DNA of 39,768 bases from a virus. Positions 1 to 39,768 of the stretch are shown here, one piece after another; the stretch's first letter is position 1, and each line of letters begins with the position of its first letter. The position numbers and the translations under genes were made by a program. Location: the IMG/VR virus record IMGVR_UViG_3300031760_006869, positions 1 through 39,768 of that record; one strand, 5' to 3'. The notes below the pieces were generated by a model, which made no database searches, was not told where the DNA came from, and saw nothing but the letters and a program-made list of their open reading frames with translations.

Positions 1-127
1 TACGAATTGACATAAGTATACATTTGTTGTTGCAGTTTCTGTTCCATATGTAGCAGTGAATGTGGTATCACTTGAAACTTCAACATCATATAATGTGAAA
101 ATTCCTAAATTATTCGTTATACCGCTG
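1..127. repeat. 127-bp exact direct copy of 39546-39672 (circularisation / assembly-graph branch overlap)
   Basis: Base-for-base identity from tacgaattgac... to ...ataccgctg. The copies diverge immediately after the CCGCTG core (ttaaacgaa vs aaaaacgaa). Confidence 0.95.
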
Positions 128-136
128 TTAAACGAA
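113..136 (-). other. Putative inversion (recombination) site 3; on minus strand TTCGTTTAA-CAGCGG-TATAACGAA
   Basis: 9-bp imperfect inverted arms around a 6-bp asymmetric core shared with the sites at 37794 and 38401. It heads the reversed cassette C. Confidence 0.85.
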
Positions 137-8912: not shown

Positions 8913-8956
8913 AGGACCAAAAATAACCCTATTTTTGTGGAAAAGTTAGTTTTTGT

Positions 8957-9000
8957 GAGGCCCTAAAACTTGATTGTTTTATGGTCTCTTATTTTTTTTT
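8957..9000 (+). terminator. Hairpin plus T-tract ending the late operon
   Basis: gaggcc..taaaac/gtttta..ggtctc stem followed by a 9-T run. Confidence 0.55.
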
Positions 9001-9041
9001 AAAATAATTGTATTACATTGCTTGTATTACAAATCGGCAGT

Positions 9042-9298
9042 TTAATAAGTGATTAAGGCCATAAATAAATAGTAGGAGAGGCAAATTTTGCTTATATTAA
9101 AATTTTGATGTATGGTTTGGTTTTTTTATCATTTCATTTTTGTTACTCTTCTTGATAATTTTGTATTAATTTATTATTTAATTGATTATTGATTTGCCTT
9201 TCCTGCCTTAACAATCACCTTATTAAGTCAACAACTATTTGTATGTATCAAAGGATTAGGAGGGAGTCCCATTTTTTGTGGATTCCCTCCTTTTTTTT
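9042..9298 (+). ncRNA. Candidate structured small RNA A with 3' hairpin and U-tract
   Basis: 15-bp stem 9073-9087/9191-9205 with three G:U pairs, outer stems 9042-9058/9206-9226, and a 12-bp hairpin 9258-9291 followed by a T-run. Confidence 0.45.
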
Positions 9299-9400
9299 AT
9301 TTTTCAAATGCTCTCGCTTAATCTTTATATGCTTCTAAGAATAAAAATAATATTACTTATTTTCTAATAAGTAAAGTGTTTTATGGTGTAGATAATTTCT

Positions 9401-9448
9401 GGGTTCATTATCGATTAGTACTTGATAATGAATCCTTCTTTTTTTTTT
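9401..9448 (+). terminator. 14-bp hairpin plus T-tract
   Basis: gggttcattatcga/ttgataatgaatcc (two G:U pairs) followed by a 10-T run. Confidence 0.55.
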
Positions 9449-9624
9449 AAAAATTACGGTTTAATGAACTTAATTAAACAGAAGGAAGCCCGTAAAGTGT
9501 TTGAGGATATATTACGTGAAAATAATATAAAATTATAAAAAATTTTGTATTTTTTTATATTTTTTCTTCATTTTTTAGTATTTTTTTAAGTTTTTTTTAC
9601 TATTTTTGGGTAAAAAACATTAAA

Positions 9625-9635
9625 TTTATATTATA
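9625..9635 (+). promoter_or_regulatory. Archaeal TATA-box candidate for structured RNA B
   Basis: TTTATATTATA lies about 25-30 nt upstream of the first helix (9653-9658), with an A-rich stretch upstream. Confidence 0.4.
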
Positions 9636-9652
9636 CTTATCACATAATATTA

Positions 9653-10071
9653 TTTGACTTAGTTCTCGGTAAGTCAAAATTCTTGGGTATAGTCAATGTT
9701 GGGTTTTAATTGACTACTCCTCGGTGCTGTTTCTGCATACTTGTACTGTTCTTGTATTGCTTGTGGCCACTCCTAGGAATGTGGTCACATTAAACAGCTT
9801 TAAATAATCTACTTTTTTTCATTAAATTATTTCTTTGCATATGCTCTTTTGAAAACATTTAAATCTTATTTTATTCAATATTTATACTGAGGAGTGTTCT
9901 TTGTAATTGTTATTGATATGGCCCTAACCCAAGTCATATTAAAAAAATAAATACTAAATATGGTATGTGTTTTTTTAATTAAAGCTAGGCTTGGCTATAT
10001 CCAGGGATTCTTACCGAGAACTAAGCGTTCCTTGTAGTCAAGGCCTTTCTATAGGAGGGATTGGCCATGAC
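9653..10071 (+). ncRNA. Candidate large structured RNA B / cis-regulatory leader with multi-stem fold and possible pseudoknot
   Basis: Five nested helices whose only non-Watson-Crick pairs are G:U on the + strand, plus a hairpin occluding the downstream RBS and start codon (see findings). Confidence 0.6.
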
Positions 10072-10141
10072 CTTAATCTTAGAAGGTATCTTCCATATTT
10101 TGGTTGGTATTTTTTTCATAATTATGGGAATCTTTTTTTAG
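10067..10141 (+). CDS. 24-aa hydrophobic peptide MTLILEGIFHILVGIFFIIMGIFF (speculative)
   Basis: GGAGG at 10054-10058 lies 8 nt before the ATG, and both sit inside a hairpin. The ORF could also be a T-rich shadow ORF. Confidence 0.35.
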   Translation: MTLILEGIFHILVGIFFIIMGIFF

Positions 10142-10451
10142 ATTTTCATACTTGATTAAGTCTATTCTTTAGTTACTAGGGATTCGAGTTTTTTATTTAG
10201 TTCACTTACTTTTTATTAATTTTTCTCGTAGTAATGATTGTTTGGAATGCTCCTCTTTTACTAGGAACTATTTTTTTCATTATTTATAATTTTTTCACTT
10301 TTTTTCTTTTTTTAGACAAGTTTCGTAAAATTTTAATTTGTTCGTATAATATGAGATTGTTTAGGTTTCTAATTTTATATACTAGTTTTTACAGAATAAT
10401 AATCACTCTTTTTTAAATATTAAAAAAACATAACCAAGCCAGAAAATATCC

Positions 10452-10476
10452 ACTTGCTTATTTGGAATAAGCAAGT
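10452..10476. promoter_or_regulatory. Perfect palindrome ACTTGCTTATT-TGG-AATAAGCAAGT (attP core or operator candidate)
   Basis: 11-bp perfect arms, about 165 bp upstream of the recombinase start. Confidence 0.35.
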
Positions 10477-10640
10477 AAACAATAGTAGGCTTTGTAAATC
10501 AGAACAAAAACAAACCAAACATTCATAGGCTAAACATTGAAAACTAGGTAAACAAAATCAAGCTTTATTAGTTTTCACATGCTCTATACAACAAAGGCAA
10601 AAATATTTAAAAAAGATAAAAAAATATGAAGTGATTAAAA

Positions 10641-12017
10641 ATGAAGAGAAACAATTTTTGCCAAACCGACAAGCTACTCCATCAAAGGGTAAAAGACTTA
10701 TCAAAGTCAAGCCAAAAGGAATACAATTATGTCTTCGATGACATATACCACCTGACAGGAAGAACACCTACAGAACTAGTAAAGATTGGACTTCAGGAAC
10801 AAGATCCATACGCAACCAACGAAAAGGGAGAGAAAACATACGAATACCTACCATTCAGAACCATAACCAGTATCCATGAGGAATATGAGGAATACCTGCG
10901 AAAAAATAGCAACATAAAGGAATCAACCATCAAAGGAAGATTGCTATACTTCAGAAGCTTATTCAATAAGCATAGGATAGAACTTCCAGACATGCCAATA
11001 TTCCACATCAAAAAACCACGTACAAGATTAAAGGAACTGCCTTTAGACAGTGAATTGAAACTAGCTATTGAATTGTCAACAGAACCAGTGCAACCTTTAT
11101 TATTCCTGACACCAAGGGTAACAGGCCTTCGTTTAAGTGATATAGAAACCTTCACCTATAACACAGTATTGGAAGCAACAAAACTTTATCATGACGGAAC
11201 ACTTGAAGACCTATTGAGCAAGAACCCTTATGAGATCATACCACGTTTTGAATTAGACCCTGTGAAAACAGAAAAGCAAGGTAACCTTTGCATAACATTT
11301 GCCACTCCAGAATGGACATATTATTTCTTCAGATACACCAAGTGGAGACAAAGGAAATATGAGGAAGCTGTAGATGAGCTTGAAAGATTGAAGCATGATG
11401 TGAGGGCAAAGAACAAGCATCGCAAAAACCGTATTGAAAAAAGGATACAGAAACTGAAAATCACTCCAGAATCCCCATTGTTCATTTCAAATTTATCCAG
11501 GGTAACCGGCTTGACAAAGGGAAGCATGGGAAGATTATTCTATGACATGAATGAGAAACTAATGTATGAATTAGGGCCTGATTATAATTATAAGAATGAG
11601 GATAACAATTACGGCCGTTTCAGAGCACATAACCTTCGTAAGCTATTCAGTACAACATGCAGGGTAAATATGGTTAAAATAAATGTTGAAAATCGTAACG
11701 ATAAGTTCAGGGAATTAGACATAGTCTCATTGTTCACAGGACATACTCCTCCAAACATGAGCAACAGTGAAGTTTATGATGCTGTTGAGGAGGATAGTTT
11801 TGATAGTGAATTGAGACAAGTGTATACTGCTCTTGTACCTTTCAACACAATCTATCGTGAGCAGTATGATTTGGAGCAGGAAAGACAAAGGGCTTTAGAA
11901 CTTCAGAAAGAGAATGAAAGAATCAAAAAGGATATTGATTCTGCAGTGAATCAGAAAATAAGTGAAGTGTTTAACGAGTATGGCATTGAGGAAATACTTA
12001 AAAAACATGGGCTATAA
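10641..12017 (+). CDS. int: Tyrosine recombinase / integrase
   Basis: Catalytic signature TGLRLSD (R)...RAHNLRK (HxxR)...TGH...VY. N-terminal SAM-like core-binding region. Confidence 0.9.
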   Translation: MKRNNFCQTDKLLHQRVKDLSKSSQKEYNYVFDDIYHLTGRTPTELVKIGLQEQDPYATNEKGEKTYEYLPFRTITSIHEEYEEYLRKNSNIKESTIKGRLLYFRSLFNKHRIELPDMPIFHIKKPRTRLKELPLDSELKLAIELSTEPVQPLLFLTPRVTGLRLSDIETFTYNTVLEATKLYHDGTLEDLLSKNPYEIIPRFELDPVKTEKQGNLCITFATPEWTYYFFRYTKWRQRKYEEAVDELERLKHDVRAKNKHRKNRIEKRIQKLKITPESPLFISNLSRVTGLTKGSMGRLFYDMNEKLMYELGPDYNYKNEDNNYGRFRAHNLRKLFSTTCRVNMVKINVENRNDKFRELDIVSLFTGHTPPNMSNSEVYDAVEEDSFDSELRQVYTALVPFNTIYREQYDLEQERQRALELQKENERIKKDIDSAVNQKISEVFNEYGIEEILKKHGL

Positions 12018-12041
12018 ACATAATAATATAGGTGAATGCTT

Positions 12042-37503: not shown

Positions 37504-38397
37504 ATGAGTATTTGTGATAAGATTAATACTGCAGGGGAGACATTAGAAGCTAATCTCACTGCAAGAGGTATAAGTTGTGATTTCGGTAAGAATAGTGATG
37601 GTAAGGATACAATCCAGGATATGGCAGAGATGATCACTGCATCTAATTTGCGAGGTATTGGTGATGCCATTATCCATATATCAGCGAGTAGACCGTATTT
37701 GTTATCTGGTGAGAAGACTGATTTGATTGTGACTTTGCATAATGGTGTAGGTGCTCCGTTAGCAAACAAGAGTGTAACTGTGTCAGATGGTACTTCGTTA
37801 TACAGCGGTTTAACAAACTTGAATGGTACTTTTACCTTATATGATGTTACTGTTTCATCTAACACCACTTTCACTGCAAGTTATGGGTCTGTGAGTAATA
37901 CTTGTACTGTTGAGTATTGTACCTTTGTTGATTATGCAGTTAAAGACAATCATAACCATAATTATTTCAATCAAGCAGGTACAAGCAAGGTAACAATTAC
38001 CGAAGCCGATGGGTATAAGGAGTTCAAGACAATCAGTACAACAGCAGGGAATGTATATATTGGCTCATCAACTTCTTATACTGGCTTTGATGTAGGGGAT
38101 ACTTGGACTATCATATATGATAAACTGTACATTAATGGGTATAATGTTGCTTTCCAATGCTATAATAGCTCTACAACAGTAAGTATCAACTCTACAACAT
38201 TGCTTTCACATAATAGTGATTTTCAGGAATTGAAATTCGTATGCGATGGCTCATCAATCAAAGCATATGTCGATGGTGTATACAAGACACAAACCAGTTA
38301 CACTTCAACTGGACACGGATATTTGAGAATCAATCTTAACAATAACAATGGAGCATCACAAGTAACATTCCGAGCAAAAAATATCCGAATTTTATAG
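37504..38397 (+). CDS. Phase-variable receptor-binding / adhesin protein: constant N-terminus (37504-37803) plus expressed cassette A
   Basis: Internal recombination site at codons 97-105 (SLYSGLTN). C-terminal ConA/lectin-like pattern (ELKFVCDGSSIKAYVDG). Confidence 0.8.
   Translation: MSICDKINTAGETLEANLTARGISCDFGKNSDGKDTIQDMAEMITASNLRGIGDAIIHISASRPYLLSGEKTDLIVTLHNGVGAPLANKSVTVSDGTSLYSGLTNLNGTFTLYDVTVSSNTTFTASYGSVSNTCTVEYCTFVDYAVKDNHNHNYFNQAGTSKVTITEADGYKEFKTISTTAGNVYIGSSTSYTGFDVGDTWTIIYDKLYINGYNVAFQCYNSSTTVSINSTTLLSHNSDFQELKFVCDGSSIKAYVDGVYKTQTSYTSTGHGYLRINLNNNNGASQVTFRAKNIRIL
37794..37817 (+). other. Putative inversion site 1 TTCGTTATA-CAGCGG-TTTAACAAA (inside the coding frame)
   Basis: Matches sites 2 and 3 and marks the start of homology among the cassettes. 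Confidence 0.85.
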
Positions 38398-38428
38398 GGT
38401 TTCGTTTTTCAGCGGTATAACGAATAAT
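38314..38428. repeat. 115-bp exact inverted copy of 39654-39768
   Basis: Reverse complement checked by eye: cacggat...tttcgtttttcagcggtataacgaataat. Confidence 0.95.
38401..38424 (+). other. Putative inversion site 2 TTCGTTTTT-CAGCGG-TATAACGAA
   Basis: Lies 3 nt after the cassette A stop and heads cassette B. Confidence 0.85.
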
Positions 38429-38998
38429 CAAGGGACATTCACCTTATATGATGTGGAAGTTACTGATACTATTACAATGTTTACTGCCACATATTCAAGT
38501 GTTAGTGCAAGTTGTAAGGTTGAGTATTGTTTATTTGTTGATTATGCAGTTACAAGTAAATATAACACTAATTATACTGTGGGTAATGCCGTAACAAAGA
38601 CAGTAGGAGACAATTACACCACATTATCATCTACCAATTCAAACTCCTCCACAGGTAGAACCGTTTCAACATCAAGTTTCAGTGGAGATTTAATATTGGA
38701 AATGGAAGCCAATATGGTAAATTATGCATCCAATTGGGCTTTCTATCTTGGTTTCAGAAACGGTTCCAACCATAGTATTGCACGATTGCTTGTTGATGAT
38801 TGGAGATACATCAAATTCACAAGAGAAGATGGTGTCTGCAAAGGATACATATCAACAGACAATAATACTTGGTCTGAAATGAGTATGTATTCTGATGATG
38901 TGGGGTCAAGTGATGTGCAATTGGAATTATACATTTACAATGCAACTGGAACTTCACATAGTGTACAATTCAAGAATGTGAGAATCAAAGCATTATAA
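38411..38998 (+). other. Silent C-terminal cassette B (195 codons, no own start)
   Basis: Open from the site core: SGITNNQGTFTLYDVEV...EYCLFVDYAV...VQFKNVRIKAL. Paralogous to cassette A. Confidence 0.85.
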
Positions 38999-38999
38999 T

Positions 39000-39092
39000 G
39001 TTTCAGTAGATTATGAAGTTTTTGTATTTGAAATCAATAGTGGTGGGGATAACATCAAGTACAGTAATTTCAGAATGTACAGTATTGATTAA
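39000..39092 (+). pseudogene. Remnant 3' end of a fourth cassette (D)
   Basis: VSVDYEVFVFEINSGGDNIKYSNFRMYSID* resembles the cassette C-termini. No site or 5' part. Confidence 0.55.
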
Positions 39093-39113
39093 CCCTCTCT
39101 GATTCTGAAATTC

Positions 39114-39671
39114 TTAATAAATCGCAAAATTTTTATATGAAAATTCTACAGTTGCATTTTGTCGGAAACCAATCGCATAAATCTCATTCATAGTCCTATC
39201 ATATTCAGCATCTATTACTCCATTTAAGTATCTTCTAACTTTTGTACCAGTTATTTCAACACGATAACTTCCAATGTTAGAACAAGTCCAAGTGAAATAA
39301 GTATTATCTCCCCTAATCTCAAAATTCGGGGTTCCAGTTGTTATTTCTGTGATTTCAAATTCCACATTGAAAGGAGCAGTATAAAGTTTTGTAGAAGACC
39401 AACTACCACTTCCCCCACTAAAATATGCTTGAGCACCACTTGGGGAGGTTATTTTCAAGTTAGTGGCATTGTCTGTCCTTGTTCTTGTGAATGAAGAGTT
39501 TTGATTATACCAAGTATCATTATGTTTTGTACTTGTTCCATAATCTACGAATTGACATAAGTATACATTTGTTGTTGCAGTTTCTGTTCCATATGTAGCA
39601 GTGAATGTGGTATCACTTGAAACTTCAACATCATATAATGTGAAAATTCCTAAATTATTCGTTATACCGCT
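39114..39671 (-). other. Silent C-terminal cassette C, inverted (185 codons)
   Basis: Open from the site core: SGITNNLGIFTLYDVEV...YLCQFVDYG...FSYKNFAIY. Confidence 0.85.
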
Positions 39672-39768
39672 GAAAAACGAAACCCTATAAAATTCGGATA
39701 TTTTTTGCTCGGAATGTTACTTGTGATGCTCCATTGTTATTGTTAAGATTGATTCTCAAATATCCGTG

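Follow-up and report, generated by a model that had tools for sequence, protein, structure and literature searches.

The window, by which we mean the whole 39,768-nt stretch analysed here (IMG/VR record IMGVR_UViG_3300031760_006869), ends in a 96-nt inverted copy of part of its own tail-fibre locus. We consider it probable, at roughly 0.78, that this tail is the joint left by conservative recombination between two inverted 24-bp sites (sites 2 and 3) in a closed virus genome, an event that would flip a block carrying two silent fibre tips, cassettes B and C. The sample behind the window probably contained both orientations of this 1.26-kb fibre-tip block.

Comparison of the window with itself revealed that positions 1-127 recur exactly at 39546-39672, with the identity ending at exactly 127 nt. 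What follows these common 127 nt differs: after 1-127 comes the region upstream of gene 183, and after 39546-39672 comes the 3' end of cassette A, the expressed tip, in reverse. The last 96 nt (39673-39768) are the exact reverse complement of 38314-38409; with the 19 shared nt added, the match covers 115 nt and pairs 39654-39768 with 38314-38428. An earlier, sequence-only reading had described the repeat of 1-127 and its passage into gene 183, had traced the end of the window back from 38409 to 38314, and had explained the end junction as a product of sites 2 and 3, with A followed by C instead of B. The sequence statements held exactly on comparison, and the tail matches the predicted joint base for base. 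The same reading had set the divergence exactly at the edge of a 6-bp core. The two continuations do part at 39673 (equivalently 128), the first base past the core (39667-39672) of a 24-bp site, but the crossover itself can be placed only within the 19 shared bases 39654-39672. The features at the contig ends are:

1..127, no strand: 127-nt end overlap, left copy, composed of the reversed 3' part of cassette C and the left arm and core of site 3; identical to 39546-39672 and a mark of circular closure
39546..39672, no strand: right copy of the 127-nt overlap, the last stretch that both isoforms have in common and the branch point, from sequence comparison
39658..39681, minus strand: hybrid site at the probable recombinant joint, in which the core lies between the left arms of site 3 and site 2
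39673..39768, no strand: 96-nt tail, the probable recombinant joint, in which the left arm of site 2 is followed by the reversed 3'-terminal part of cassette A; exact reverse complement of 38314-38409

The locus in which the joint lies has the make-up of a programmed fibre switch: a constant N-terminus and at least two start-less C-terminal cassettes, each headed in frame by the same site. Its parts are:

37504..38397, plus strand: tail-fibre/receptor-binding gene in its expressed form, 297 aa, comprising a constant N-terminus (residues 1-97), site 1 and cassette A
37794..37817, plus strand: site 1, a 9-bp arm, the 6-bp core CAGCGG and a 9-bp arm, in frame inside the fibre gene
38401..38424, plus strand: site 2, core oriented as in site 1, heading silent cassette B
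38402..38998, plus strand: cassette B, no start codon, in frame from its site; an 82%-identical relative is the expressed tip in L133
39114..39680, minus strand: cassette C, no start codon; in the parental form its site continues at 128-136
113..136, minus strand: parental form of site 3, adjoining the gene at 183, with its core in the opposite orientation to that of sites 1 and 2
38410..39672, no strand: putative invertible segment of 1,263 bp (B, spacer, C) bounded by a 19-nt inverted repeat, delimited by a Logan contig range and ENA contig breaks
183..1667, plus strand: gene for an Ig-like tail protein just outside site 3, the fixed right flank of the switch

In each 24-bp site, the 9-bp arms are inverted copies of each other around the 6-bp core. 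The pattern occurs in the window only at 113-136, 37794-37817, 38401-38424 and 39658-39681, the last being the hybrid recurrence of site 3, and it was matched 0 times in 100 shuffles of the sequence. The sites are built like lox, dif and FRT sites, with inverted arms around an asymmetric spacer of the 6-8 bp class and a spacer that is identical between partners. Neither the rest of IMG/VR nor 185,579 species genomes yielded the exact pattern, and the core-free pattern gave mostly chance single matches in IMG/VR. The locus itself (37504-39768 plus 1-182) holds the fibre gene and the cassettes only, with no recombinase gene.

After the site, cassettes A, B and C have about 45 residues in common and then diverge completely. 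An alignment of 16 fibre homologues likewise displayed a conserved N-terminus and a hypervariable C-terminus. The structural model built from this alignment (mean pLDDT 77) predicts a helical N-terminus, a confident Ig-like sandwich and a C-terminal jelly roll, whose nearest solved folds, at modest TM-scores, are carbohydrate-binding modules, lectins and glycosidase beta-sandwiches. The cassette of one relative weakly matched Laminin_G_3. The predicted fold fits a glycan-binding receptor tip at the C-terminus of the fibre, an assignment that we hold with moderate confidence. Searches of Pfam, PHROGs and NCBIfam gave no match for the cassettes or for the proteins at 12036 and 12777, and an exact-protein look-up of the gene at 183 gave no record.

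Two other assemblies carry the traces expected of a segment joined to its flanks in both ways. A bovine gut metagenome run contains 99% of the window's words and is its probable source; we examined it as Logan k=31 contigs. One of these, 1,263 nt long, covers exactly 38410-39672, and the contig with the end of cassette A stops at 38428. These contig ends are the three positions at which branching of a k=31 graph is required if, and only if, the segment is connected to its flanks both ways; no 41-nt junction unitig was among the Logan rows listed. The binned depths of the run gave no usable isoform ratio, as their sums do not close and the listing of pieces with two possible placements is incomplete. 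In the ENA assembly ERZ27256908 (k=141), the virus is split into contigs of 38,442 and 1,385 nt. The longer contig encodes the exact fibre protein and ends about 151 nt past the fibre stop codon, and the shorter one contains cassettes B and C together with the opening 22 codons of gene 183. Placed by gene coordinates and lengths, they map to 109-38550 (38550-109+1 = 38,442) and to 38410-39794 (39794 being position 249), with breaks at 38410 and 39654. At either end the two contigs have 141 nt in common, beginning each time with the first base of the shared 19-mer. Overlaps at both sites are what a k=141 graph with two incoming paths at each of them would give, which implies the reciprocal joint as well. 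Both joint forms can thus be inferred from contigs and graph breaks: one joint is present in the window contig, and breaks fall at both sites at k=31 and k=141. Both the Logan and the ENA assembly are possibly from the same sample as the window.

An inverted joint of this kind could also be an artefact, either a strand-switch chimera formed at the 19-bp inverted repeat, for example during multiple-displacement amplification or PCR, or a path error of the assembler. Amplification chimeras typically have this form, an inverted 'snap-back' joint at a short inverted repeat; the tail is short and stops early, and the library type of the source run is unrecorded. Yet the assembly chimera through the 19-bp shared sequence, which the earlier reading had named as what would refute it, is impossible in graphs with k of 31, 127 or 141: a 19-bp repeat cannot merge paths at k above 19, so the junction words were present in the reads. 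Moreover, the k=141 assembly breaks at the reciprocal joint also, as a one-sided chimera would not, and the site of the joint is in frame, occurs three times and is conserved in relatives. We regard an artefact as very improbable.

There is a second alternative. Two coexisting fixed strains could differ by an old inversion between sites 2 and 3, with neither flipping now, and such lineages would look alike in these data. Apart from present activity, which coexisting fixed lineages would mimic, the earlier claim of a mixed population with an active switch is supported, and its predicted breakpoints recur to the base in two other assemblies. Standing diversity of this sort does exist, as the probable source run holds at least two cassette A alleles plus a cassette-less relative, other samples contain related viruses, each with a fixed arrangement that differs from one to the next, and one lineage (L007) shows the same orientation in 4 independent assemblies. 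Against this, the flanks of the two isoforms are base-for-base identical over the available 223 nt, breaks occur at the site edges only and no linked SNPs are visible; an old inversion at these sites would, in addition, still be a product of the same switch. We judge the fixed-strain explanation improbable. Three further runs (X2, X19 and X3) do not contain this cassette set in complete form, X3 showing a relative with one inverted cassette, and they give no independent evidence of a flip.

In the probable source run, two alleles of cassette A (38087-38236) occur at similar depth, together with a relative that has unrelated sequence after the fibre gene in place of site 2 (38395), like the relative L006.

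The window is a complete, circularly closed genome of a tailed virus with a unit length of 39,545 bp, and its host is a rumen Methanobrevibacter. Relatives with the same gene order measure 35-43 kb, so the 39,545-bp unit represents the full genome. In IMG/VR, the window is filed as linear and 78% complete. Most likely, the inverted 96-nt tail masked the terminal overlap from the end-repeat test, and with its overlap hidden a closed genome was filed in this way. Its genes include those for a large terminase, a Mu-type portal, MuF, a protease and the capsid, and the tail genes encode a tape measure, Dit and a Tal protein with a transglutaminase domain. The virus also encodes a lysin with a pseudomurein-binding repeat, which points to a host in the Methanobacteriales, and its near relatives were assembled from the gut of cattle and sheep. 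The 1.7 kb before the integrase gene (8913-10640) are free of ORFs longer than 60 aa, with a GC content of 25.5% over 9001-10000; this region is a likely seat of attP and regulatory RNA.

The window contig would have arisen as follows. The assembler would have walked the circle once, producing the 127-nt overlap, and then have taken the minority path behind site 3, producing the 96-nt tail. Judging from common assembler settings, the length of the overlap would reflect k=127; if so, the tail ends 12 nt before the full junction edge, which suggests a thin, low-coverage minority path. In the virus genome, the inverted 24-bp sites 2 and 3 would recombine by a conservative, site-specific mechanism, thereby flipping the 1,263-bp block with silent B and C. 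Such a flip would itself be silent: the expressed fibre (N-terminus plus A) would be unchanged, with C now forward and B backward. Reversed B would be the intermediate needed for a later inversion at site 1 that could express B. Recombination between sites 1 and 3 would invert the intervening DNA and express C, and recombination between sites 1 and 2, which have the same orientation, would delete A. The enzyme is inferred to be a tyrosine recombinase that exchanges strands across the 6-bp core.

Related viruses lend comparative weight to this reading. In tyrosine-recombinase systems such as Cre/lox, FLP/FRT and Xer/dif, the overlap region matches between partners and may differ between systems. 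Across the lineages examined here, the arms are constant, and the core is the same among the clear partner sites within each of six lineages, with three core types in all: CAGCGG in the window, L012, L134 and L136, CAATGG in L007 and L133, and CACCAG in L050. L034 and the low-coverage contig L011 have one degenerate candidate site each, with a core that is one base off. One relative (L006) is without sites or spare cassettes.

The arrangements themselves differ among these relatives. L136, known from six contigs of 20-50 kb, belongs to the same virus species and is 95-97% identical to the window in each flank. It has two backward cassettes after the expressed tip; the right arm of the cassette A type now lies at the site beside gene 183, and site 1 has an arm of the silent-cassette type. 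This topology, together with the swap of arms, is the outcome predicted for an inversion between sites 1 and 3 and may be read as its product. In L137, the N-terminal part is identical in alignment to the fibre of the window but is joined to a different tip in the same topology. Tips of the B type differ in state: that of the window is silent and points forward, those of L134 and L135 are silent and point backward, and that of L133 is expressed (82% identity). L012, for which the first 10 kb of the record were covered, encodes a fibre 92% identical to that of the window and has sites 1 and 3 only, with one inverted cassette. The same 43-kb contig (Ga0256407_10001816; positions 1-59) starts 35 nt outside its own site 3 and is another assembly that stops at the switch.

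The surroundings of the fibre-plus-cassette module were also compared. In L007 (4058-6340) it lies between the Tal gene and a pseudomurein lysin, in L134 (7179-8622) between the gene for an Ig-like tail protein just downstream of Tal and a pseudomurein lysin, and in the window between a 443-aa Ig-like protein and the gene at 183. The differing neighbours in the window and its relatives indicate that the module moved as a unit.

Which enzyme would act on these sites is a separate matter. The genome contains one recombinase gene:

10641..12017, plus strand: divergent tyrosine recombinase of a Methanobrevibacter provirus-integrase family, 458 aa, recognised by its catalytic residues and the family profile

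It lies 10.5 kb from site 3, or 26 kb the other way round the circle. R164, K209, R333, H368 and Y379 do not vary among 24 homologues, of which at least 90% also retain H330. The family profile matches archaeal XerA (5hxy, E 3e-6), and PF00589 is matched by 20 of the 24 family members (best E 8e-11), with no match for the protein at 10641-12017 itself. A six-frame search of the whole genome with PF00239 (serine recombinase) returned nothing at E<=10, and Pfam likewise detected no tyrosine recombinase in it. Some members of the family are annotated as integrases, and homologues sit at the borders between host and provirus genes, from which we conclude that the family's usual job is integration. 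A search for attP by comparing the region upstream of the integrase gene with the provirus borders of homologues gave nothing usable. From its sequence, the protein is a candidate invertase, with a chance that we place somewhat short of even. The case is weakened by L134, which has the same arms although its integrase is only 24% identical.

The inversion could instead be performed by a host-encoded recombinase that recognises these arms, a proposal that comes fairly close to an even chance without reaching it. We searched 301 Methanobacteriaceae genomes (genomes G005-G302) for the arms of the viral sites, with a pattern in which a 6-bp spacer of any sequence is flanked on either side by 6 fixed and 3 A/T bases. 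The arms were present in 157 of the 301, and the sites number roughly 430, whereas the reversed control gave about 13. Most host sites are single and intergenic, lie between housekeeping genes and have arms extending to 11 bp (e.g. loci L140-L159), compared with 9 bp in the virus. The spacers of some host sites recur at apparently orthologous loci in many genomes. The arm sites inspected in five genomes are not adjacent to genes of the viral-integrase family, and no att-like site with the arms of the fibre sites was found near the viral integrase gene; both observations favour a host enzyme, as does the retention of the arms between viruses whose integrases are so dissimilar.

Genome G059 has these inverted site pairs:

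L160: 3032-3253
L161: 3038-3259
L162: 3092-3313
L163: 2996-3217
L164: 426-647

The sites of each pair are 198 bp apart and each pair has its own spacer; contigs C16 and C36 of this genome begin 7 nt from such a site. The inner segments are homologous, AT-rich and TATA-like, and at different loci they occur in either orientation relative to conserved flanks. At 4 of the 5 loci, the segments lie 400-700 bp upstream of genes with adhesin-like N-termini, as read by eye. Their sequence makes it probable that these segments are invertible promoters, and promoter-like segments in both orientations between arms of the viral type again speak for a host enzyme. Among the proteins encoded in G059 are an XerA orthologue, a short PF00589 protein and a single member of the viral-integrase family.

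Other findings count against the host proposal. XerA appears to have a different cognate site: following the definition of the Thermococcales-type dif site (PMC2958812), we found an identical 20-nt palindrome of that type with a 6-bp spacer once per genome in 4 of 5 genomes, at these candidate dif positions:

G226:C1:410233
G069:C1:1766480
G082:C1:1806825
G113:C1:1705212

Candidate dif is unlike the arms of the fibre sites, so XerA is not the obvious enzyme, and no further candidate emerged among host proteins. A member of the viral-integrase family is likewise present in every genome checked, and the virus encodes a tyrosine recombinase and nothing else able to do the job. The idea that the fibre sites mimic host dif was likewise weakened by the different, Thermococcales-type candidate in those 4 of 5 genomes. 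That the enzyme is neither the viral integrase nor host-encoded seems unlikely to us. A bolder proposal, which we offer tentatively and at well under even odds, is that one tyrosine recombinase, host-borne or carried on mobile elements, drives phase variation of both the methanogen surface and the receptor-binding tip of the virus. If this were true, the virus would be plugged into a programmed-inversion regulon of its host; the literature searched contained no description of such a regulon in methanogenic archaea.

The switch shares elements with several known systems. Mu and P1 switch host range by DNA inversion. In the Mu G segment and the P1 C segment, as here, inversion couples one constant fibre N-terminus with alternative C-terminal tips; the inverted sites lie inside the reading frame, and the silent tips have no start codon. 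However, Mu and P1 use serine invertases (Gin and Cin, acting at gix and cix), of which none is found here, PF00239 being absent. Their sites are 26 bp long with a 2-bp crossover, whereas the present sites are 9+6+9 with a 6-bp core. The three cassettes, the combination of one direct and one inverted partner site, the lack of an invertase beside the segment and the archaeal host also set this locus apart from Mu and P1. With no adjacent serine recombinase and a different site architecture, it falls outside the Gin/Cin/Pin/Hin class.

The R64 shufflon (Rci, sfx) resembles it in being a multi-cassette switch of a C-terminal adhesin tip, with a tyrosine-type recombinase that is probably matched here, and in having silent rearrangements as intermediates. 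In R64, though, an sfx site has a single conserved arm with a spacer of 7 bp, and the rci gene lies alongside. The present sites are conserved in both arms, which are inverted repeats, with a 6-bp spacer and no neighbouring recombinase gene, which excludes a shufflon of the R64 type. Cre/loxP and Xer/dif resemble the present sites in design, with inverted arms, an asymmetric 6-8 bp spacer and partners that must match, but no sequence relationship to them was found, and the probable Methanobrevibacter dif differs.

Among archaeal viruses, the nearest counterpart is the haloarchaeal phiCh1. Its int1 gene reportedly lies between two fibre genes, with recombination at clusters of direct repeats (Rossler et al., 2004). 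Two published accounts describe inversion of the tail-fibre genes ORF34/ORF36 by Int1 in phiCh1 (and phiH1) (PMC8371274; PMC6210493). PhiCh1 is like the present virus in that an archaeal tailed virus swaps fibre C-termini by inversion of a tyrosine-recombinase kind, but the sites here are single and lox-like, the cassettes number three, the host is a methanogen and no recombinase gene lies within the fibre locus, so that the phiCh1 type does not apply. In the literature searched, no archaeal-virus precedent other than phiCh1/phiH1 was found. The MSTV1 paper was considered as a precedent for an invertible adhesin locus and set aside, as its text contains neither 'inversion' nor 'recombinase'. 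For viruses of methanogens, the literature searched held no report of a fibre inversion switch, its incomplete coverage making this weak evidence of absence.

Taken on its sequence features, the system is best supported as a putative three-cassette host-range switch of the Mu/P1 type, with shufflon-like multiplicity, sites like those of tyrosine recombinases and a methanogen host. Methanobrevibacter of the rumen and gut is the main biological source of enteric methane, and to our knowledge few of its viruses have been isolated. A virus that shuffles three receptor-binding tips bears on the prediction of host range and on phage-based control of methane. The signature of a terminal overlap followed by an inverted tail could be mined for active switches in public viral contigs, and the arm sites by adhesin-like genes in host genomes would make phase variation in methanogens directly testable.
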